Sequence record: MN850609.1
DNA from: Escherichia phage dhaeg
Reading direction: 5' to 3' (one strand)
Length of the DNA stretch: 64,000 nt
Positions 1 through 10,526 of this stretch are shown here, piece by piece. The notes below the pieces were generated by a model, which did no database searches, was not told the origin of the DNA, and saw only the letters and a list, made by a program, of their open reading frames with translations. How positions within the stretch are numbered: position 1 is the stretch's first letter; each line of letters begins with the position of its first letter. The position numbers were made by a program, and so were the translations under genes.

Positions 1-51
1 ACTGATTTCTATTAATGGGCTTCAGACTGAAACTCTGCTTGTCATGTAATA

Positions 52-76
52 TGCTTTAAGAATAGCGTGTTATTAT
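52..76 (+). promoter_or_regulatory. candidate MotA-type middle promoter upstream of gene 31
   Basis: TGCTTTA-like box, about 12 nt spacer, then TATTAT, roughly 30 nt before the gene 31 ATG; coordinates approximate. Confidence 0.3.
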
Positions 77-107
77 TAATCTATCAACAAAACAACATGG
101 ATTAAAT

Positions 108-431
108 ATGGAACTTCCTATTAAAGCGGTCGGAGAATATGTTATTCTCGTTTCCGAACCAAAACAAGCTGGCGATGAAGAAACTACTGCATCTGGTATC
201 GTTATTGGTAAACTTCACCAAGGTGAAATCCCTGAACTTTGTGAAATTTATTCTGTAGGACCTGATGTCCCTGAAGGGTTTTGTGAAGTAGGTGATTTGA
301 CTCCACTTCCTGTTGGTAAGATTGCTAACGTGCCGCATCCTTTAGTTGCATTGGGTATTAAACAGCCTAAAGAAATTAAACAGAAATTCGTTACCTGTCA
401 CTATAAAGCTATTCCGTGTCTTTATAAGTGA
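108..431 (+). CDS. 31: GroES-like co-chaperonin for capsid protein folding (gp31)
   Basis: 107-aa ORF; [16 protein letters not shown]...[17 protein letters not shown] matches remembered T4 gp31; next to rIII as in T4. Confidence 0.9.
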
Positions 432-591
432 TATAAATAATAATATGGATTGGCTGATGTCATACAGAGCTTTGCTGGTGTATGGGGTTAGCTAATCCTA
501 AGCGGTGGACTACAACTGAGAGACTTGCCGAAAGGAAGTGAAATTCAGAAGAACGTGTCCACCAATCTTTATCTCGAATCGAGAATTTAAA

Positions 592-840
592 ATGAACAAA
601 CATCTGAATCACGCTCTTGAACTGCAACGCAACGCTTGGAACAACGGTCACGAAAATTACGGCGCATCTATTGATGTTGAAGCCGAAGCACTGGAAATCC
701 TGCGTTATTTCAAACATCTTAATCCTGCTCAGGCTGCTCTGGCTGCTGAACTGGAAGCAAAAGATGAACTGAAATATGCTAAGCCTTTGGCTTCAGCAGC
801 TCGTAAAGCAGTACGTCATTTTATTATTACCCTGAAGTAA
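592..840 (+). CDS. rIII: lysis-inhibition accessory protein rIII
   Basis: 82-aa product from internal ATG (MNKHLNHALELQRNAWNNGHENYG...), 18 codons into the listed ORF, preceded by gagaatttaaa; size and position match T4 rIII. Confidence 0.85.
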   Translation: MNKHLNHALELQRNAWNNGHENYGASIDVEAEALEILRYFKHLNPAQAALAAELEAKDELKYAKPLASAARKAVRHFIITLK

Positions 841-867
841 AATCGAGGAGCCGTCGAACTGTCTGAT

Positions 868-887
868 TAATGATTTGCGAATCATTA
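868..887 (+). terminator. perfect 8-bp hairpin (taatgatt-tgcg-aatcatta) downstream of rIII
   Basis: Inverted repeat read directly, followed by tagtttt; AT-rich stem so termination efficiency is uncertain. Confidence 0.3.
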
Positions 888-1193
888 TAGTTTTAAGACC
901 CCGGCAGTTTTACGGTGTACCTCTTGAATGTTATTTTATAGCGGCAAGTGCATGCTACCCCGAGGTGATGGCCAATCGGGAGTACGCCTCAAGGCCTATA
1001 TACCCATCAGTATATATCTTATCCTCGAGAAATCGAACCCGGAACCTTTAAGCTAACGGTGCGCAACAGATAAGAGCTATGATGACGAGGTTTATGGTTA
1101 TCCTGTCGTTAAATATCCGAAACCTATGTTCCCCTTGAGGGCTTGCGCAGGCAACGCCAATAAGTCCTGCATTCTAATTTAAGAGATTTAAAA

Positions 1194-1355
1194 ATGGCTA
1201 AGAAAGAAGTTAAAGTAGTTGACGGAACCTCTAAACGCGCTGGTTACAAGCGTGCGTCTAACAAGCGTATCAATCAGGTAGTTGATAAGCTTCAAGCTCG
1301 TGCTCGTGCAGTATTGCGTGCAGATGCTGCTTGCTTCGGTAAAGTTATTGCATAA
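1194..1355 (+). CDS. small basic protein, 53 aa, below the ORF-track size cut-off
   Basis: ATG...TAA ORF translating to MAKKEVKVVDGTSKRAGYKRASNKRINQVVDKLQARARAVLRADAACFGKVIA, immediately followed by a strong terminator; weak SD. Confidence 0.4.
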   Translation: MAKKEVKVVDGTSKRAGYKRASNKRINQVVDKLQARARAVLRADAACFGKVIA

Positions 1356-1360
1356 GTTAT

Positions 1361-1386
1361 GGGACTCTTCGGAGTCCCATTTTTGT
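1361..1386 (+). terminator. rho-independent terminator
   Basis: gggactc-ttcg-gagtccc hairpin followed by atttttgtttct. Confidence 0.7.
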
Positions 1387-1406
1387 TTCTAAATCTTTAA
1401 AAAAGG

Positions 1407-1435
1407 GTATACATCTCCGGTAGGCATGATACTAT
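1407..1435 (+). promoter_or_regulatory. candidate sigma70-type early promoter (GTATAC-17-TACTAT)
   Basis: -35/-10-like hexamers with 17-nt spacing, directly upstream of a leader duplicated at 1874-1923. Confidence 0.4.
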
Positions 1436-1480
1436 AGACATGTACCAAATAATACGAAAACAAACCGGAGAATAAAATGA
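1431..1480 (+). repeat. about 50-bp leader repeat, copy 1
   Basis: 40 of its last 40 nt match 1884-1923 with one mismatch (tgtaccaaataatacgaaaacaaacYggagaataaaatga). Confidence 0.8.
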
Positions 1481-1845
1481 AAATCAATCTTAACTCATAT
1501 ATCAAATGTAAAGACCACGACGGTTATAAAGCTATTGAAACTAAAGAGATGCAATGGCGCTTGTACAAAGAACAATTTGAATTTGTAGGTTGTATGACTC
1601 CTGAAGGTCCTTCCGATGACTTCTCTTGGAAAATTTTGGTAACAAACTTTTTTACTGGTGATACCTACGAACTGAAAACTATCATAACCGGTAAGATTCG
1701 TTGTAAGACCTATGAAGATGAAGAAACCGGTTATTCTGAAGATGTTACATGGTATCAAAATGGTCGTATAACTGCAGATAACTTGATCGAAAAAATGAAA
1801 GCCAAAGGTGAATTAAATTTAGATAATTGGATTAAAGTTGCATAA
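1477..1845 (+). CDS. hypothetical early protein (122 aa)
   Basis: ORF with strong RBS (ggagaataaaATG) behind an early-type promoter; shares a CMTP motif at the same position with the next ORF. Confidence 0.6.
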   Translation: MKINLNSYIKCKDHDGYKAIETKEMQWRLYKEQFEFVGCMTPEGPSDDFSWKILVTNFFTGDTYELKTIITGKIRCKTYEDEETGYSEDVTWYQNGRITADNLIEKMKAKGELNLDNWIKVA

Positions 1846-1849
1846 AACG

Positions 1850-1890
1850 GTTTACTTTGGTACAGGTTGTGTTATTATAGACCTGTACCA
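1850..1890 (+). promoter_or_regulatory. early promoter inside a stem-loop (PeSL-like): GTTTAC-17-TATTAT with 9-bp stem tggtacagg/cctgtacca
   Basis: -35 gtttac and -10 tattat separated by 17 nt; the -10 lies in the loop of a perfect 9-bp inverted repeat. Confidence 0.5.
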
Positions 1891-1923
1891 AATAATACGA
1901 AAACAAACTGGAGAATAAAATGA
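1874..1923 (+). repeat. about 50-bp leader repeat, copy 2
   Basis: Near-identical to 1431-1480; covers the -10 region, 5' UTR, SD and start codon of the downstream ORF. Confidence 0.8.
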
Positions 1924-2285
1924 ACTACATCAACTTCGAACGTAAATATGTTTCTAACGGTATCGCTGGTTCTTCTGAAGTTATTTGCCTGTGGAAACAC
2001 AACAACGGCACAGTGTGCGAAATCGAACAGTGCATGACTCCTAACTACGTTTATATGCGCTTTGAAAATGGTATCACGGTTTCAATCACTATGGAAGGTT
2101 CTACTTTTAAAATCGCTTTAGACGATGATTTCCGTCAACGTGATTTAGGTACCCATCCTTGCTGGAACGGCGCTAATCGTAAGCTTCTGGTTAAAACTTG
2201 GATTCGTCATATCCTGAGCAACCGTGCTAAACCTGAACACCTGGAAGCAATCTTTGATGTAGTTCTGAATGAATTTGATATCTAA
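1920..2285 (+). CDS. hypothetical early protein (121 aa), distant paralogue of the 1477 ORF
   Basis: Same leader/RBS as the 1477 ORF; CMTP motif at residues 38-41 versus 39-42. Confidence 0.6.
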   Translation: MNYINFERKYVSNGIAGSSEVICLWKHNNGTVCEIEQCMTPNYVYMRFENGITVSITMEGSTFKIALDDDFRQRDLGTHPCWNGANRKLLVKTWIRHILSNRAKPEHLEAIFDVVLNEFDI

Positions 2286-2295
2286 TCTTAAAAAT

Positions 2296-2311
2296 GGAGG
2301 CTTCGGCCTCC
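2296..2311 (+). terminator. hairpin ggaggc-ttcg-gcctcc after the 1920 ORF stop
   Basis: 6-bp GC stem with tetraloop 10 nt past the stop codon; short T tract only. Confidence 0.35.
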
Positions 2312-2326
2312 TTTGAGGAAAATATT

Positions 2327-2614
2327 ATGTTTATGACCACTTATTTCGATACTCGTAAAAATTTCTGTGAAGTTGTTTTCTCTAAGGCAGGTAAAGATGT
2401 TCCTGCTGACAAACAGCCTACTCGTGAATCCATTAAGGCCTATGCTGATGTGGTTTGTCCAGTAGAATTCCGTACAGTCAATGGTCGTGACACCCTAGCA
2501 ATCACTAAGCTCAGCCATGATATTAACATCGACCCTAGCGCTGCCCGCGAAGTCAATACTTCTGACATCTACGGTGGTAATGTTAAATCACATGGATTTC
2601 AGATGAGGTTCTAA
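2327..2614 (+). CDS. hypothetical protein (about 95 aa)
   Basis: Internal ATG 11 codons into the listed ORF, preceded by gaggaaaat SD; the listed upstream ATG lies in the hairpin and has no SD. Confidence 0.5.
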   Translation: MFMTTYFDTRKNFCEVVFSKAGKDVPADKQPTRESIKAYADVVCPVEFRTVNGRDTLAITKLSHDINIDPSAAREVNTSDIYGGNVKSHGFQMRF

Positions 2615-2808
2615 TGCAACTATTCTTATCACAAACCGTCCAGTTAAAAGGTGTAGGTATTCCTGGAATGATTTCTAAGGTCTTGCCTGGTTTTAAATTA
2701 GGTAATGCTACTATTAAAGAAGCCTACACCGTCCTGTGGGTCGATGGAACTGAAGACGTTCGTATGGGTTCTGAATTGTCTGTAATCAAATGTTTGAAGC
2801 GAGGATAA
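2614..2808 (+). CDS. hypothetical protein (64 aa)
   Basis: ORF with GAGG SD; start overlaps the upstream stop (TAATG). Confidence 0.5.
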   Translation: MQLFLSQTVQLKGVGIPGMISKVLPGFKLGNATIKEAYTVLWVDGTEDVRMGSELSVIKCLKRG

Positions 2809-2809
2809 T

Positions 2810-3025
2810 ATGGTTAAGAAACTGATTCAGAAATTGTTAGGTACGGAAATGGTTGAAGTGACTTATCGTGTGACTGATGTTTCTCCTCATACGGCAGACC
2901 ATTTAGAACCTTATATCATGACAATTAAAATGCCTAAACATGACGGTGGCTTATCCATTGAAGACCGACTACCTGGTTATGGTCATTGGGCTGATGTGGA
3001 GATTATCAGTGTCAAAGATATTTAA
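2810..3025 (+). CDS. small protein, tandem paralogue A (71 aa)
   Basis: Shares the frame KLxQKLxGxEMVEVTYRVxDxSP...IISVKD with the next ORF; gaggataat SD. Confidence 0.55.
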   Translation: MVKKLIQKLLGTEMVEVTYRVTDVSPHTADHLEPYIMTIKMPKHDGGLSIEDRLPGYGHWADVEIISVKDI

Positions 3026-3034
3026 GGAACCTTC

Positions 3035-3247
3035 ATGATTAATAAATTATTTAAAAAGCTGTTTGGTTTGGAAATGGTTGAAGTGACTTATCGTGTTATT
3101 GATTTATCACCGCCATATGCTTGCGATGAAGATGCTATTAAAACTGTTGTTATGCGAAAAACATATCGCGGGCGGTCAATTAAAGAAAGATTACCGGACC
3201 ATGGCATGTGGTATGCAACCAAGATTATAAGTGTCAAAGATGTCTGA
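3035..3247 (+). CDS. small protein, tandem paralogue B (70 aa)
   Basis: Paralogue of 2810..3025 with conserved N- and C-terminal segments. Confidence 0.55.
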   Translation: MINKLFKKLFGLEMVEVTYRVIDLSPPYACDEDAIKTVVMRKTYRGRSIKERLPDHGMWYATKIISVKDV

Positions 3248-3698
3248 GTTAGAGATAAGAAGTAACTTTCCGTGGCCATCATGCGCATTAAGTAACTTTG
3301 CTAAATGGCCTTTCGTTATGGATGGTATCCAATTCGGTGGGCTCGAAGGATTCCTCCAAGGATGTAAGGTGAAAAATGTTGAACAGCAAAGACGTATATT
3401 TAGGATGTCCGGGTTGGACGCGCAAAAAGCTGGACGAGCTTATGCTAGAGCTCAGGACCGTGGCACGTTGTTCTGGCTTGGAACCCCGTTTTCAAGATAT
3501 TCCGAAGCATGGAAAGAGCTTTACGAAAGTGCGTATTTTGAAGCAGCGCTCCAGAACAAAGGATTTCGCGATGCGTTACAAGCCACTAAAGGTAAGGTTT
3601 TAAAGCATTCAATGGCAAGCCACCTAAAAGAATGTGATACAATACTAACTGAAAAAGAGTTTATCGACATCCTAAACAAATTGAGAGATTTATTATGA
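3240..3698 (+). CDS. NADAR/YbiA-like (DUF1768-type) domain protein
   Basis: LSNFAKWPFVMDGIQF...EGFLQ and W-x3-YESAYFEAALQNKGFRDALQATKGKVLKHS resemble the remembered E. coli YbiA/NADAR core (FSNFAAWPIKVDGKTW...SEHYFQ); start overlaps the upstream stop. Confidence 0.55.
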   Translation: MSELEIRSNFPWPSCALSNFAKWPFVMDGIQFGGLEGFLQGCKVKNVEQQRRIFRMSGLDAQKAGRAYARAQDRGTLFWLGTPFSRYSEAWKELYESAYFEAALQNKGFRDALQATKGKVLKHSMASHLKECDTILTEKEFIDILNKLRDLL

Positions 3699-4333
3699 AA
3701 CCAGTTATCTTAACAGATATCGATGGAGTATGTTTAAGTTGGCAGTCCGGCTTGCCTTATTTCGCACAGAAATATAATTTGCCTTTAGAACATATTTTGA
3801 ATATGATTCAGGACGAACGTTTCTTATCTCCAGGCGAACTGTTTAATTGTGACGACGAATTAGGCGCACGTTTAATCGAGAAGTATAACCAGTCAGATTT
3901 TATTCGTTATCTGTCCCCTTACATGGACGCATTAAAACACATCAACAAGCTCAAAAAAGACTTCGATTTTGTAGCCGTGACTGCGCTAGGCGACTCAATT
4001 GATGCCCTGCTGAATAGACAATTCAATTTGAATGCTTTGTTCCCTGGCGCATTCAAGGAGATTCTGATGTGTGGTCATTCAGAATCAAAAGAAGACCTGT
4101 TCATAAGAGCTAAAAATACGTACGGCAAACGTATTAAGTTTTATGTCGATGATTTGGCTCACCACTGTGATGCTGCATCTAATATTCTCATGGATATCCA
4201 AGTTTATTGGTTAGCCCGTGGTGAACGCGACTTTAAACCTAATTTAGCCGTAAAGGTTAATTCATGGGACGATATCGCAGCTATCGAATCCCTTCGTAAT
4301 AATGCAGCAGTTGAATGGATTGCTCGAGGTTAA
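3695..4333 (+). CDS. HAD-superfamily hydrolase (putative phosphatase/nucleotidase)
   Basis: N-terminal ILTDIDGV (HAD motif I DxDG[TV]) and C-terminal YVDDLAHH acidic motif; ATGA overlap with the NADAR-like gene. Confidence 0.5.
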   Translation: MKPVILTDIDGVCLSWQSGLPYFAQKYNLPLEHILNMIQDERFLSPGELFNCDDELGARLIEKYNQSDFIRYLSPYMDALKHINKLKKDFDFVAVTALGDSIDALLNRQFNLNALFPGAFKEILMCGHSESKEDLFIRAKNTYGKRIKFYVDDLAHHCDAASNILMDIQVYWLARGERDFKPNLAVKVNSWDDIAAIESLRNNAAVEWIARG

Positions 4334-4334
4334 T

Positions 4335-4607
4335 ATGTTTGTTGTTCATACAATTTCGGACCATGGCCCTACCACTACAATGGATTATGGTCACGTCAAT
4401 CAGTTCTTTCGTCATCAACCTTTATTTAGGATTGCCAAAGAAAATCCTTTATTTAAAGAATGTGTGGAGCAAGGGTTTATTTACATCAGCAAATACGATG
4501 TAAATATGTTTTCCACAGGCAATAATAGAATGATTACCTACAATAAACGCCTTGACTTGCTGTTAGAAGAAGTGGCGTATAATAGAAATCAATCCGGAAG
4601 AAGGTAA
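4335..4607 (+). CDS. hypothetical protein (about 90 aa)
   Basis: Internal ATG 11 codons into the listed ORF, immediately after the upstream TAA. Confidence 0.45.
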   Translation: MFVVHTISDHGPTTTMDYGHVNQFFRHQPLFRIAKENPLFKECVEQGFIYISKYDVNMFSTGNNRMITYNKRLDLLLEEVAYNRNQSGRR

Positions 4608-4610
4608 ATT

Positions 4611-6116
4611 ATGATTTTAGATATTTTGAACGAAATTGCTGCTATCGATTCTACTAAAGCTAAAGAAGCTATTATTGCTCGTGAAAAGGATAACGAGCTT
4701 CTGAAACGTGTTTATCATATGGCTTATACCCGTCGTCTGAACTACGGTATTAAAAAGTGGCCAGAACCTGGATTTACGTCTCAATCCTTTGGTATGATTA
4801 CACTTGAAGACCTTCTTGATTTCGCTGAGTTCACACTAGCAACCCGTAAGATTACAGGTAATGCTGCTATTGAAGAACTTGCTCAAATTATTGCTGATGC
4901 CAAGGGTCCTGACGCTGAGGTATTACGTCGCGTAATGATGCGTGACCTTGAATGTGGTGCATCGATTTCTATTGCCAACAAGGTTTGGAAAGGTTTAATC
5001 CCTGAACAACCTCAAATGTTGGCTAGTTCTTATGACGAAGCTCTAATTAAGAAAAATATTAAATGGCCAGCGTTCGCTCAATTAAAAGCTGACGGTGCTC
5101 GTTGTTTTGCTGAAGTTCGTAACGATGGGGTAACATTCCTTACTCGTGGTGGTAATGAATATCAAGGGCTTACTAAGCTTGCAGCCGAACTTATTAAAAT
5201 GACTGAAGAAGCTCGTCAGCGCCATCCTAATGGTGTTATGATTGACGGCGAATTAGTTTACCATACACCTAAAGTAGAACCTAAAGCATCTAATGATTTG
5301 TTTAGTATGTTTGATGAGGAACTTCCTGAATTAAGTAAGGCTAAGGAATTCCAAACCGTAGCTGATCGTTCTACGTCAAATGGCTTGGCTAATAAAGCCC
5401 TCCAAGGAACTATTACTCCGGCTGAAGCTGATGGTATGGTATTACAGGCATGGGACTTTGTTCCACTGGATGAAGTTTATTCTGAAGGCAAAATTAAAGG
5501 TCAAAAATACGATGTTCGTTTAGCGGCATTAGTACAAATGGCTGAAGGTTTTACACGTGTCGAGCCTATCGAAACGCAATGGGTTAATAATCTTGACGAA
5601 GCTAAAGTCGTTTATAAGAAATATGTCGACCAAGGTCTGGAAGGTATTATCCTTAAGAACATGGACTCCTACTGGGAAAACCGCCGTTCTAAGAATCTTA
5701 TCAAGTTCAAAGAAGTAATTGATATCGCTTTAGAAGTGGTGGGTTATTATGAACACTCGAAGGACCCTAACAAACTTGGTGGTGTCGAGCTAGTATCGCG
5801 GTGTCGTCGAATTACATCCGACTGTGGTTCAGGCTTTAAAGATACTACCCATAAGAAAGATAAATCAGGTAAAAAGGTATTGATTCCATTGGAAGACCGT
5901 CCTGATTTAGACCGTGAACTTCTTATGAAACAAGCTCGTGAAGGTAAGTTGATTGGACGTATTGCTGACTGTGAATGTAATGGTTGGGTTCATTCTAAAG
6001 GACGTACAGATACTGTAGGTATTTTCCTTCCAATTATTAAAGGTTGGCGTTTCGATAAAACAGAAGCTGATACATTTGAAGATGTATTTGGTGATTGGTC
6101 TCAAACTGGACTATAA
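4611..6116 (+). CDS. 30: ATP-dependent DNA ligase (gp30)
   Basis: 501 aa; adenylation motif I lysine in FAQLKADGARCF (KxDG); size and position as T4 gene 30. Confidence 0.9.
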   Translation: MILDILNEIAAIDSTKAKEAIIAREKDNELLKRVYHMAYTRRLNYGIKKWPEPGFTSQSFGMITLEDLLDFAEFTLATRKITGNAAIEELAQIIADAKGPDAEVLRRVMMRDLECGASISIANKVWKGLIPEQPQMLASSYDEALIKKNIKWPAFAQLKADGARCFAEVRNDGVTFLTRGGNEYQGLTKLAAELIKMTEEARQRHPNGVMIDGELVYHTPKVEPKASNDLFSMFDEELPELSKAKEFQTVADRSTSNGLANKALQGTITPAEADGMVLQAWDFVPLDEVYSEGKIKGQKYDVRLAALVQMAEGFTRVEPIETQWVNNLDEAKVVYKKYVDQGLEGIILKNMDSYWENRRSKNLIKFKEVIDIALEVVGYYEHSKDPNKLGGVELVSRCRRITSDCGSGFKDTTHKKDKSGKKVLIPLEDRPDLDRELLMKQAREGKLIGRIADCECNGWVHSKGRTDTVGIFLPIIKGWRFDKTEADTFEDVFGDWSQTGL

Positions 6117-6117
6117 T

Positions 6118-6288
6118 ATGAAAGCTTATTTAGAAACAATTGTTGTAACAAATACAAATACCACCGCGGCCTCTCAAATCATCCTAGAGTTTGAGGATGA
6201 AATAGCTTTTGCCGATTTTAAAGACGTGTTTGATGGCTATGAAAAAGGCCCGACATTCGAAGTATATCGTACGTTGCTACCACTTTAA
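6118..6288 (+). CDS. hypothetical small protein (56 aa)
   Basis: ATG 14 codons into the listed TTG-initiated ORF, directly after the ligase stop; followed by a terminator. Confidence 0.4.
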   Translation: MKAYLETIVVTNTNTTAASQIILEFEDEIAFADFKDVFDGYEKGPTFEVYRTLLPL

Positions 6289-6305
6289 GGCCTTCGGGCC
6301 TTTTA
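6287..6305 (+). terminator. rho-independent terminator (aaggcc-ttcg-ggcctt + ttttat)
   Basis: GC stem with tetraloop and a T tract directly after the 6118 ORF stop. Confidence 0.55.
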
Positions 6306-6338
6306 TGGCATAAATACGGTTATTAAAGAGGAATTATT

Positions 6339-8399
6339 ATGACCGAACAATTGAATGAGGTGTTTGAGTCCGAAGGCACCCTGCCTACTGTAAACTTAAA
6401 CCCAAAACTTAAAGTACCGCAGATTTGGAAGATTGGCGACGCCGAATCCCAATTAGTGGCCCGTATGGTATCTTATGCCTCTGAAGGCGATGCTATTAAA
6501 CAGGTTAAATTAGGTGATAAATACGCCCATGTTATCCTTATGAGCCTTTCAGCTAAAGGTTCTCCGGCCGAACTTAAAGGTGGCTTAGGCCCTACTCCTA
6601 TTGATGCTATTAATACCATTTTCGACGTAGTATTCGAACAAGTTAAAAAGCTTCGTATGGATGCTGTGATGTTCCGTTTTCCAACCAAGAAAATGAAAGG
6701 GCAAGGACCTATTGTCCAACGGATTATCCAACGTTTGGTAGCACAGAAAACCGGTGGACGTTTTAAAGTAGTTCCGGCTATGTACCAATTTACCGGTAAA
6801 CATACTTATATCCTAGTAGTTCGTAAACAAGCTGATATCGAAGATATCAAAGGTATGCCTGGAATTAATGCCGAATTGTATACTAAGGTAGATTCTGATG
6901 TTGGTGAAGTTTATATTTCTAAAAAAGAAGGCCTGCAGGTTACTAAAGAAACTGCTATTGCCGGCAGTATTGCTAAAGTTGAAGAACGTCGCACTGATAA
7001 AATGGTTATAACCAAGACTAAGATTTCTCGTCGCGCTATTGCAGCAAGCCAGTCTTTAGAATCCTATCGTAATGAAAGTGAACTGTTTAAGAAATATGAA
7101 GCCACTGCCGCTGATTTTAATAAACCGGCAACAGCTCCATTAATCCCTGATGCCCAAGAAATGGTTACTAATAACAATTCTCCTGCGGCTAAAAATAAGG
7201 TTGCTAATATAGTAGCTGAAGGCACTGCTGAAGAGTTGCATTACGATTATAAAATGTTTCCTCTTCACGGTATAGGTGAAATCCAAGAGAAAATTAAAGA
7301 GAGAATCCTTACGGCCATCAAAAACGAACCTTTGACATCTGTTAAAGCTCTAGAAAAATATGCCTCTGTTATTAATACCGTTTTCGAAGAATACAAAGGT
7401 GAATGGCTGGCTAAGCATAACAAAACTCGTAAAGGTCAGCCTGATGACGTCTGGAATGAATTAACCGAGTCCAAGTGGAAAGCAGCCAAGACCAAGTTCA
7501 TTAAAAAACGTGTGTATAGTTTTGCTGGTGTAGGTGGTGGTATTATGGTTGATATTACTTTAGGTCATAGTGCAGATAAATACACCCCTTCTCAAAAACG
7601 TGGTATTCGTGAATATTGTGGCTCCGGATATGGCGATATCAATAACCTTCTTTTAGGACGATATAATCCTCAGAACTATGAGGTTATGAGCGAAAAAGAT
7701 ATCGAATCTGCAGTTAATAATTTGGATTCTGCTTTTGAAAACGGTGATAGATTACCTGAAGGCATTACTGTTTATCGTGCACAGAGTATGACGTGGGCCA
7801 TATATAATGCTTTAGTCAAAAATAAAGTATTCTATTTTAGAAACTTTGTATCCACTTCACTGACTCCTATTATTTTCGGCCGTTTTGGTGTTACTCATGC
7901 GGGTGTGGGTCTTTTAGAGCCTGAAGTTAGAGCCGAACTTACCGTAGATAAAAATGATGAAGGTTATACTAAGGTCCAAGGTTCCGGCGACAAGTTGGTT
8001 AAAGTTGGTTGGGCTATTGATGGGGCTTCTAAGGTTAACGTAGTATTCCCTGGGCAACTTGGCATTGCTACTGAAGCTGAAATCATTCTCCCGCGTGGAC
8101 TAATGGTAAAAATTAATAAAATAACAGATGCATCCAATAATGACGGTATAATATCCAACAATACAAAACTCATTCAAGCTGAAGTTATGACAACAGATGA
8201 GCTTCAAGAGTCAGTGGTATATGATGGTGATGTACTAATGGAAACTGGTGAATTGGTTGTATACCAAGATGACTTCGATACTTCCGAAAGCCCTGTATCT
8301 TTTGATTCATTTGTTAAATCTACACGGTTTGACGTACTGCCTCTTTTGGCTTCATGCATAGACCTCTATGACATCCCAGAAAAATTCATCCAAGGGTAA
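6339..8399 (+). CDS. alt: Alt-type ADP-ribosyltransferase, paralogue 1 (packaged, injected)
   Basis: 686 aa (T4 Alt about 682); C-terminal R-S-ExE triad (TVYRAQ / FVSTSL / ATEAEIILPRG); N-terminal LNE motif consistent with gp21 processing; position between 54 and 30 as in T4. Confidence 0.85.
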   Translation: MTEQLNEVFESEGTLPTVNLNPKLKVPQIWKIGDAESQLVARMVSYASEGDAIKQVKLGDKYAHVILMSLSAKGSPAELKGGLGPTPIDAINTIFDVVFEQVKKLRMDAVMFRFPTKKMKGQGPIVQRIIQRLVAQKTGGRFKVVPAMYQFTGKHTYILVVRKQADIEDIKGMPGINAELYTKVDSDVGEVYISKKEGLQVTKETAIAGSIAKVEERRTDKMVITKTKISRRAIAASQSLESYRNESELFKKYEATAADFNKPATAPLIPDAQEMVTNNNSPAAKNKVANIVAEGTAEELHYDYKMFPLHGIGEIQEKIKERILTAIKNEPLTSVKALEKYASVINTVFEEYKGEWLAKHNKTRKGQPDDVWNELTESKWKAAKTKFIKKRVYSFAGVGGGIMVDITLGHSADKYTPSQKRGIREYCGSGYGDINNLLLGRYNPQNYEVMSEKDIESAVNNLDSAFENGDRLPEGITVYRAQSMTWAIYNALVKNKVFYFRNFVSTSLTPIIFGRFGVTHAGVGLLEPEVRAELTVDKNDEGYTKVQGSGDKLVKVGWAIDGASKVNVVFPGQLGIATEAEIILPRGLMVKINKITDASNNDGIISNNTKLIQAEVMTTDELQESVVYDGDVLMETGELVVYQDDFDTSESPVSFDSFVKSTRFDVLPLLASCIDLYDIPEKFIQG

Positions 8400-8402
8400 A
8401 TA

Positions 8403-10526
8403 ATGGAAAATTTAAACGAAGTTTTTGATAGTGATTCCGCTAAAAACTATCCAGTAACAAATCTTAAACCAGGCTCCGGTATCCCACAGATTTTCTCTAT
8501 TCAAGCACCAGGTAACGATAACCTGGTTGCTCGTATGGTATCTTATGCGTCTCAAGGAGACGCTATTAAAATGGTTAAGCCCGGCGACAAATACGTTCAT
8601 GTTATTTTAATGAGTTTGTCGAGCAAGGGTGCTCCAGCTGAACTAAAAGGTGGCCTTGGTTCCGACCCACTTGGTACATTGAATACTATTTTCGATACGA
8701 TATATGAACAAGTAAATAAACTTAAAATGGATGCGGTTTTGTTCCGTTTCCCTACCAAGAAAATGAAAGGTAAGGGCCCTACTGTTCAGCGTGTATTAGC
8801 TCGTTTGGCGATGGCACGTACCGGTGGTAAGTTTAAAGTTGTCGATAGCATGTTCCAGTTTAGTGGTAAACATACATACGTTCTTTTAGCACGTCGTGGC
8901 ACTAATATCGAAGATATCAAGGGTATGCCTGAAATTGATGCGGACCTTTATACCAAGGTTGAGTCTAAAGTCGGTGAAGTTTATGTTTCTAAGAAAACCG
9001 GCCAGGCCGTAAGTAAGGTCGAAGCCGTAGCAGCATCTATTGCACAGGTTGAAGAGAAACGTACCGATAAGGCTGTTATCTCTCGTACTAAAATTTCCCG
9101 TCGTATGGCTGCAGCAGCGCAGTATTCTACTGCCGAACCTGAAACTTTATCACCTAAAGAATTGCAGGTTTATAACGAGTTTGAAGCTTCCGTCCCTGTT
9201 CACTCGGCCGAAGGCCCTGAGAACGAAGGTATTGAACAAATTAGCCAGAACTTTAAAAAAGGTGCTATTACTAAAATGCGTCAGGCCTCTCAGTTTAAAT
9301 CTAAGAGTGAGGACCTTGCCAACTTTAGATACACCATTGCTCTCACACACGCTTTAATGACTGATAGTAAATTTAAACTAAATTATGCTAATAGAGATAA
9401 ACAAGGGTTTGAAATTTACTCTAATAATATGGCATTTTTTAATACGGAAGTCGATAGACTTTTAAGCGGCCTTTCTCAAATCAATACTACCAATAGTCTG
9501 GATATTATTAAGAGAATTGTTAATAACCTGAGTGCCCGTTTTCAGGGGTCTCCTTCAGAGAAAGCATCCCGAATTGCTTTCGCTATGGAAGCCGTTTATA
9601 AACTGATTAACGATTCTATTAGCGATGCATATGCTTATTCAGGCGAGCTCATTAAACCTAAGGGCTTGACCAAAGACGAAAGTAATGCCATTATTGAATA
9701 TTGTGCGGCTGAATATGCTCCTATGAACTTATTCCTTTTAGGTAAACCTGAATCCGAAAACAATACAACAGCTATTAAATTGATTAAGGATTTAGACTCA
9801 GCATTTACCAAGGGTATTAAACTTCCTAAGGGTACTATTTTGTATCGTGGTCAGGATTTACCATACAAAATTCTGCGCCATAATATTGATAACAAAACCT
9901 TTTACTTTAAGAACTTTGTATCCGCTTCATTAAAGCCTAATATCTTTGGTGAATTTGGTAAAAATTATATGGCCCTCGACAACCAAGCAGTTTTTGTTGG
10001 TGATGAAGGTTCTTTATCCTCCGCCGATGAGTTGTTTAAATTGGCCAGTGGTAGTTCATCTGACGTAGGTGAAGTTGATGATGAAGAGGTAGAATGGGAA
10101 GAAGACGAGTTTGGTAATCCAATTGCACCTGAAGGCCCTGCAGACAGGATTGCTGAAATTGGTATGGTTATTCGAGGTGCTGAAGCAGTTAAAGTTATCG
10201 CTCCTGGTGACCTTACAGAATATGCCGAAGAAGCGGAAATTATCCTTCCGCGCGGATTATTGTTGAAGGTTGATAAAGTAGCAGCTTTTGCTATGAATGA
10301 TAGGGTATCTCACAAATACCTTATGGAAGCTACAGTGACATCTCCTTCAGAACTCAGTGAGTCCGTTTACGATGGTGACCATCTGATGGAAACCGGCGAA
10401 GTTAAATTGATGAATGGGTTTAAAGAATTCCTAGTTTCAGAATCTGTTTCAGAAAGTAACGAGGCTATGGAAATCCTTGCTGCATCTTTGGACATCTCTT
10501 CTTTACCAAATAAATTCAAAATGTAG
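8403..10526 (+). CDS. Alt-type ADP-ribosyltransferase, paralogue 2
   Basis: 707 aa; first about 180 aa strongly similar to paralogue 1; own R-S-ExE triad (ILYRGQ / FVSASL / AEEAEIILPRG); divergent centre and an acidic insertion (DDEEVEWEEDEFG). Confidence 0.8.
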   Translation: MENLNEVFDSDSAKNYPVTNLKPGSGIPQIFSIQAPGNDNLVARMVSYASQGDAIKMVKPGDKYVHVILMSLSSKGAPAELKGGLGSDPLGTLNTIFDTIYEQVNKLKMDAVLFRFPTKKMKGKGPTVQRVLARLAMARTGGKFKVVDSMFQFSGKHTYVLLARRGTNIEDIKGMPEIDADLYTKVESKVGEVYVSKKTGQAVSKVEAVAASIAQVEEKRTDKAVISRTKISRRMAAAAQYSTAEPETLSPKELQVYNEFEASVPVHSAEGPENEGIEQISQNFKKGAITKMRQASQFKSKSEDLANFRYTIALTHALMTDSKFKLNYANRDKQGFEIYSNNMAFFNTEVDRLLSGLSQINTTNSLDIIKRIVNNLSARFQGSPSEKASRIAFAMEAVYKLINDSISDAYAYSGELIKPKGLTKDESNAIIEYCAAEYAPMNLFLLGKPESENNTTAIKLIKDLDSAFTKGIKLPKGTILYRGQDLPYKILRHNIDNKTFYFKNFVSASLKPNIFGEFGKNYMALDNQAVFVGDEGSLSSADELFKLASGSSSDVGEVDDEEVEWEEDEFGNPIAPEGPADRIAEIGMVIRGAEAVKVIAPGDLTEYAEEAEIILPRGLLLKVDKVAAFAMNDRVSHKYLMEATVTSPSELSESVYDGDHLMETGEVKLMNGFKEFLVSESVSESNEAMEILAASLDISSLPNKFKM

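Follow-up and report, generated by a model that had tools for sequence, protein, structure and literature searches.

Two early genes of Escherichia phage dhaeg, a T4-like phage, very probably encode products that act independently of each other: the NADAR protein AdfN and a Mg2+-dependent HAD phosphomonoesterase belonging to an NT5C-related branch. The genes, adfN (gene 30.3; positions 3240..3698, 152 residues) and gene 30.2 (positions 3695..4333, 212 residues), are on the plus strand of the 64,000-nucleotide stretch of phage DNA that we analysed as a whole and call the window (record MN850609.1). The first is already known, in that an orthologous protein was characterised in 2024–2025. The second encodes an ordinary, conserved, uncharacterised phage phosphatase; in T4 this gene is dispensable and stands outside the counter-defence against DarTG1.

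The first 10 kb of the window contain T4-like early genes on the plus strand, in the order 31 (co-chaperonin), rIII, 30.9 to 30.1, 30 (ligase), alt, alt. By megablast, the region is closest to the JS98/JS10 (Dhakavirus) group, with 90–97% identity; some GenBank records of this group name the matching genes 30.4, 30.3, 30.2, 30.1 and 30, while most say "hypothetical protein". Directly upstream of adfN are two tandem gp30.4 paralogues (2810..3025 and 3035..3247, plus strand), both matching phrog_2042 and 54% identical to each other. The reading frame of adfN starts with an ATG and overlaps the stop end of the second paralogue by eight bases. An in-frame GTG is present at 3231; the T4 orthologue nevertheless begins at the same MSELEIRS as the frame starting at 3240. 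Gene 30.2 is followed, on the same strand, by gene 30.1 (DUF3045; 4335..4607, start read from the sequence; Pfam PF11243, E 3.7e-23), the DNA ligase gene 30 (4611..6116; Pfam DNA_ligase_A_M) and two full-length Alt-type ADP-ribosyltransferase genes in tandem, the first at 6339..8399 (Pfam PF03496, E 3.8e-32) and the second, assigned by its paralogy with the first, at 8403..10526. The preliminary description placed adfN and gene 30.2 next to the ADP-ribosyltransferase genes; this is true in a loose sense, the two Alt paralogues being about 2 kb downstream, past gene 30.1 and the ligase gene. A promoter and terminator scan of positions 1..6500 gave nothing exceeding shuffle expectation, and found no signal separating 30.4, 30.3, 30.2 and 30.1.

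The product of 3240..3698 had been recognised from the sequence as NADAR/YbiA-like, and profile searches bear this out. Pfam PF08010 (Phage_30_3) matches with an E-value of 7.7e-66 and 220.6 bits, where the cut-off is 36 bits, over profile positions 2–138 of 138. T4 gp30.3 aligns with the protein over 152/152 residues without gaps, at 86% identity; the 22 substitutions are mostly on helices 55–75 and 124–132. Members of the gp30.3 family also match the Pfam NADAR profile PF08719 directly (10 of 38, best E 1.5e-7). The sole match in sequence searches of the PDB is E. coli YbiA, whose E-value improves from 0.8 with a single query to 0.0044 with a profile built from 39 sequences. The AlphaFold2 model (pLDDT 93.5) has a YbiA-like fold: Foldseek gives YbiA (2b3w) as the best match, with an E-value of 6.3e-5 and a TM-score of 0.69, followed by the NADARs of Phytophthora (8bau) and Geobacter (8bat), and every PDB match below these three solved NADARs is noise. 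Identity, fold and residues make the window protein an orthologue of AdfN.

The suggestion that such a NADAR could counter DarT-type ADP-ribosylation has been shown experimentally to hold for the T4 orthologue (PMC11825919, PMC11125620). Resistance of T-even phages to DarTG1 was mapped by phage crosses to gene 30.3, which was renamed adfN (Johannesman et al., bioRxiv 2024, PMC11257639; Nat Commun 2025, PMC11825919). T4 gp30.3 is necessary and sufficient for the resistance of T4 and T2, deletion of adfN from either phage leads to a 4-log loss of plaquing on DarTG1, and the purified protein strips ADP-ribose from DarT1-modified DNA (PMC11825919). In vitro, the T4 protein hydrolyses guanosine-ADPr, while thymidine-ADPr is left intact, and uninfected cells are not rescued from DarT1 by T4 AdfN (Cihlova et al. 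2024, PMC11125620). Rescue from DarT toxicity had been put forward as a check; the published answer for T4 AdfN is negative in uninfected cells and positive for phage infection. An unidentified phage factor of the Tevenvirinae has been postulated for full AdfN activity (Johannesman et al., Nat Commun 2025, PMC11825919). In the T4 transposon screen HIDEN-SEQ (10.1101/2025.11.20.689424), 30.3 is dispensable on K-12 and lost on DarTG1. The resampling sheet used here gives 30.3 a log2FC of −7.25 (adjusted p 0) on DarTG1; from this value, and from its position directly before the DarTG2 sheet with its tk.4 hit, we took it to be Data S6 (control versus DarTG1).

By analogy with the 86%-identical T4 protein, AdfN of the window would be a guanine ADP-ribosylglycohydrolase that protects against DarTG1, although its strength or the range of DarT1 alleles it counters could differ, given the 22 substitutions. 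In the mechanism that we propose, the DarT1 toxin of the host would ADP-ribosylate guanine in replicating phage DNA, and AdfN, as a minimal, core-only N-glycosidase of NADAR fold, would hydrolyse the guanine-ADP-ribose bond; with the ADP-ribose released, replication would be restored. AdfN would, in effect, be an orphan antitoxin mimicking DarG1. The phage would then be expected to resist hosts carrying DarTG1, a point that bears on how host range is predicted for therapeutic T4-like phages. In place of "hypothetical protein", the annotation of 3240..3698 should read adfN (anti-DarT factor NADAR, DNA guanine ADP-ribosylglycohydrolase).

AdfN of T4, a Tequatrovirus, shares with that of the window, from a Dhakavirus, its length of 152 residues, the residues E36, K43 and H123, the slot between 30.4 and 30.2 and the ATGA overlap. 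Outside the phages, the closest relative of the AdfN clade is reported to be the DarT1-associated NADAR, DarG1 (PMC11257639), of the BC4488 family (G. lovleyi 8bat and the NADAR of E. coli C7), which has the same fold as the window protein. DarG1 hydrolyses guanine-N2-ADP-ribose (Schuller et al. 2023, PMC11543638), and AdfN probably catalyses the same reaction, to judge from the activity known for T4 AdfN. The two differ in setting and in size. The DarG1 operon contains DarT1, whereas adfN in the window is an orphan with the gp30.4 paralogues, the HAD protein gp30.2 and the DUF3045 protein gp30.1 as neighbours. DarG1 also has an N-terminal extension of two beta sheets and a helix, with a basic groove for single-stranded DNA; AdfN of the window lacks it, its first strand being formed by residues 3–5. 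YbiA is the best structural match and has the ExxFQxxK motif in common with AdfN, but the two are only about 17% identical, and YbiA is an N-glycosidase for riboflavin intermediates, with a physiological role unlike that of AdfN.

The gene that follows adfN had been described as encoding a HAD-motif hydrolase, and here, too, the description was correct. The motifs DIDGV (residues 8–12) and YVDDL (residues 150–154) are both present in gp30.2, and its HAD fold is confident, with motifs I to IV intact: D8xD10 (I), T96 (II), K132 (III) and D152-D153 (IV). The protein matches phrog_420 with an E-value of 2.4e-70 and is 75% identical to T4 gp30.2 over its first 194 residues, lacking the C-terminal tail of about 85 residues of the T4 protein. 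In the model (pLDDT 94.5), a Rossmannoid HAD core carries a C1 cap, made up of helices 16–26, 32–40, 46–50, 54–65, 68–72 and 77–86 and located between strands 4–7 and 91–96. Among 41 gp30.2 homologues, T96 is present in at least 90%, and D8, D10, G11, K132, D152, D153, W16, R108, N111, F116 and P117 in all. In 95 sequences at 21–32% identity, D8, D10, R108 and K132 are still invariant. An aspartate two residues after the HAD nucleophile sets phosphotransferases apart from dehalogenases. D8 would act as nucleophile and D10 as acid/base, and motifs and model together predict that gp30.2, from an NT5C-related phage branch, is a phosphomonoesterase that is intact and depends on Mg2+.

The database search returned 123 homologues of gp30.2, and those with a named source are all from T4-like phages, save two bacterial-assembly entries; their hosts include enterobacteria, Acinetobacter, Shewanella, Pseudomonas and others. 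An exhaustive profile search extended this to 1242 cluster representatives at E ≤ 1e-3. The relationship to NT5C emerges among these relatives more clearly than in the window protein itself, which matches Pfam NT5C (PF06941) below threshold, with 12.9 bits (E 0.1) against a gathering score of 24.8. Searching Pfam, NCBIfam and the PDB with gp30.2 as the single query likewise gave nothing beyond sub-threshold NT5C/cdN matches. Its best PDB sequence match is mouse cdN (2jao; profile E 0.048), in an alignment that places W16 opposite the phenylalanine after motif I of cdN. One distant relative, from a viral contig (L075), comes close to the NT5C gathering score (E 4.3e-5, 23.9 bits), and a second relative (P0360) exceeds it (E 6.1e-10, 39.7 bits). 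Among 94 remote relatives (21–32% identity), 30 match Pfam NT5C at E ≤ 1e-3, eight match Hydrolase and six HAD_2; four distant relatives (P0294, P0341, P0288 and P0242) carry no informative extra Pfam domain. Since the window protein stays below the threshold that some relatives pass or approach, we file gp30.2 as NT5C-related and not as an NT5C member.

The NT5C structures (cdN 2jao and 6g2n, mdN 4mum and the bacterial 3bwv) are only 14–17% identical to gp30.2, which, unlike them, has its own invariant block R108-x-x-N111-L-x-x-x-F116-P117. A structural search with the gp30.2 model scored many HAD subfamilies about equally; as none of them is preferred, the assignment as a nucleotidase is a weak one. 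The substrate is most likely a small phosphoester of the kind of a (deoxy)nucleoside monophosphate, a nucleotide being no more than plausible. The neighbourhoods of L075 and a further relative, L076, give no functional clue, all that they yielded being PhoH and an AAA protein resembling a clamp loader, and literature searches for "gp30.2" and for a T4-like deoxyribonucleotidase returned nothing on the gp30.2 protein.

In T4, the 30.2 gene tolerates insertions at 72/72 TA sites, is neutral in LB versus M9 (−0.10) and has a log2FC of −0.12 on DarTG1 (p 0.61, 71 TA sites; the sheet taken to be Data S6). This dispensability might be explained if gp30.2 were a counter-defence protein in its own right, an NT5C-like phosphatase acting on a toxic nucleotide, or on an immune signal derived from a nucleotide, made by a defence system that E. 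coli K-12 lacks. The gp30.2 family, with 123 homologues and 1242 representatives, is conserved throughout the T4-like phages and its catalytic residues do not vary, there is the affinity to NT5C (30/94 remote relatives), and the gene shares its early block with the anti-defence gene adfN. The dispensability of 30.2 on K-12, whether in LB or M9, and on DarTG1 also resembles the pattern of adfN, which is non-essential on K-12 and needed on DarTG1. If true, this role would explain an active site that is invariant despite complete dispensability on K-12. However, minor housekeeping of the nucleotide pool would fit the dispensability equally well, and the HIDEN-SEQ sheets examined, those for DarTG1 and for LB versus M9, contain no significant effect for 30.2. 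We consider a counter-defence role of gp30.2 unlikely, and prefer to regard it as a conserved phosphatase independent of adfN.

The ATGA coupling of adfN and 30.2 is real: the adfN stop and the 30.2 start overlap at 3695..3698, and the T4 annotation has the same four-base overlap of 30.3 and 30.2 (at 128307–128310), with the gene order as in the window. As a mark of a functional pair, the overlap does not stand up to co-location in other phages or to the T4 transposon data. Were the two products a module, the HAD protein might be the "potentiating factor" of AdfN, for which its position makes it an obvious candidate, or it might process the ADP-ribose that AdfN releases. We examined co-location at 155 viral loci, 75 of gp30.2 and 80 of gp30.3. 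The gp30.3 gene is present within 4 kb of gp30.2 at 39 of the 75 gp30.2 loci, always upstream and on the same strand, but at about half of these loci gp30.3 is absent from the 4 kb upstream. Seen from the other gene, a gp30.2-like HAD is found within 5 kb at only 21 of the 80 gp30.3 loci, all 21 of them T4-like, and at least eight T4-like genomes carry the two genes on a single contig at a distance of about 60 kb. On DarTG1, moreover, T4 does not need 30.2 (−0.12, as above, against −7.25 for 30.3). A functional module was rejected on these two grounds; for T4 it is largely refuted, and for the window we hold it to be highly improbable.

A second proposal of the preliminary description was that the NADAR protein might regulate the phage's own ADP-ribosylation. 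Under this reading, AdfN would reverse the modifications made by Alt, ModA and ModB instead of countering a host toxin, and the presence of two Alt genes in the same early block speaks for it. Its biochemistry does not agree with what is known of the family, as the characterised NADARs, including that of T4, act on guanine-ADPr in DNA and RNA and do not act on thymidine-ADPr or on phosphate-linked ADPr, and a report of a protein substrate for them was not found in the literature examined. The genetics do not agree either: T4 30.3 is non-essential, and its loss without phenotype, in the absence of DarTG1, becoming conditionally essential in its presence, and disruption of alt by insertions makes no difference on DarTG1 (−0.01 in the T4 transposon data). 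Nor is the place of 30.3 in the early block fixed, because in other T4-like genera about 60 kb separate it from the 30.2 locus. A role in regulating the phage's own ADP-ribosylation is thus very doubtful, and AdfN is better understood as a protein directed against host DarT1.

The active site of AdfN agrees with this function. In the alignment with YbiA, LEGFLQGCK of the window protein (LEGFLQ being residues 35–40) is opposite SEHYFQAQK, and catalytic competence had been doubted on account of this difference. The window protein nevertheless keeps four residues of the YbiA motif, E, F, Q and K, of which the E and K are E36 and K43, essential in T4 AdfN: the E36A and K43A mutants are inactive (PMC11257639; PMC11825919), and the corresponding catalytic residues of PnNADAR are E43 and K50. 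EGFLQ..K is invariant across the gp30.3 family; because this is the form that the NADAR motif takes in the family, and one that is active in T4, the doubt is answered. E36, G37, F38, Q40, K43, R86 and H123 are invariant in 38 gp30.3 homologues, down to 34% identity. In catalysis, E36 and K43 would contact the distal ribose and the diphosphate. H123, the sole invariant histidine of the family, follows the last strand of the model (residues 120–122). Phage NADARs have a histidine where YbiA-type proteins have a glutamate and DarG1-type proteins an aspartate (Schuller et al. 2023, PMC11543638; PMC11125620). H123 is probably the structural equivalent of this last-strand glutamate of the YbiA family or aspartate of the BC4488 family, and the phage-specific histidine would stand in for them during catalysis.

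The C-terminal helix, the loss of which abolishes the function of RB69 AdfN (PMC11825919), is intact in the window protein, as judged from the gap-free alignment with T4 to residue 152 and from helix 138–151 of the model. The RB69 copy is frameshifted 15 residues before its end, and RB69 is rescued by ectopic AdfN (PMC11825919); the window protein keeps these last 15 residues, which have no counterpart in RB69. A further natural null allele, in the homologue L004, is an in-frame deletion that takes out E36. That the window protein is a dead enzyme, retained as a pseudo-enzyme or binding protein, could be argued from the replaced H and Y of the YbiA motif and from these null alleles in relatives, but is the least credible reading for a full-length protein that has all the invariant residues of its family and a LEGFLQGCK identical to that of the active T4 enzyme.

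A second open reading frame, of uncertain coding status, is contained within adfN in an alternative frame (3376..3603, plus strand). It is open only in close relatives, and is equivalent to T4 30.3' (75 residues), with the same length and 57% identity.

The gene for the NADAR protein AdfN (gene 30.3, 3240..3698) appears to have been inactivated naturally in a close relative. In locus L004:3522-4005 (IMGVR_UViG_2974741249_000001), of which gp30.2 is 99% identical to that of the window, adfN has lost about 34 codons through an in-frame deletion that joins MSELEIRS to IKVKN and removes the essential catalytic residue Glu36. This looks like a null allele, comparable to the frameshifted adfN of phage RB69. 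Two database matches, P0132 (109 residues) and P0133 (91 residues, phage UGJNEcP4), likewise look truncated.

The position of adfN also varies. In several other T4-like genomes, gp30.3 and gp30.2 are encoded around 60 kb apart on one contig (viral loci L113, L118, L131, L138, L139, L143, L147 and L152 versus L031, L049, L065, L070, L029, L033, L026 and L024), so adfN has been relocated within the T4-like backbone.

Upstream of adfN, the window has two gp30.4 paralogues in tandem on the plus strand (2810..3025 and 3035..3247; both phrog_2042), 54% identical to each other, whereas T4 has a single 30.4. The adfN start overlaps the 30.4 stop. In the published T4 transposon screen, 30.4 is likewise depleted on DarTG1 (log2 fold change −1.79, adjusted p 0.014), possibly through polarity on adfN.

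Within adfN, an alternative-frame plus-strand ORF of 75 codons (3376..3603) matches T4 30.3', with equal length and 57% identity; the T4 annotation describes 30.3' as "internal translation in a different reading frame". The equivalent frame is open over 76 codons in most close relatives. In more distantly related gp30.3 genes it is interrupted or short, which makes the coding status doubtful.

The C-terminal tail of gp30.2 is highly variable among homologues. The window protein (3695..4333, 212 residues) has none, while T4 30.2 (L001:5475-6311) has one of about 85 residues; other homologues run up to 347-430 residues, and the tail is frequently rich in Pro, Trp and Tyr. The 302-residue homologue P0012 also contains a DUF3045 (gp30.1) domain, suggesting a read-through fusion.

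Two full-length Alt-type ADP-ribosyltransferase paralogues lie in tandem on the plus strand (6339..8399 and 8403..10526), where T4 has a single alt and the remnants alt.-1 and alt.-2. Paralogue comparison gives 64% identity across the N-terminal 240 residues and 34% in the catalytic halves. The sole convincing intrinsic terminator signal within the first 6.5 kb of the window is a strong plus-strand hairpin (1359..1380; GC-rich 9 bp stem followed by a T-run), directly 3' of a 53-residue ORF (1194..1355).
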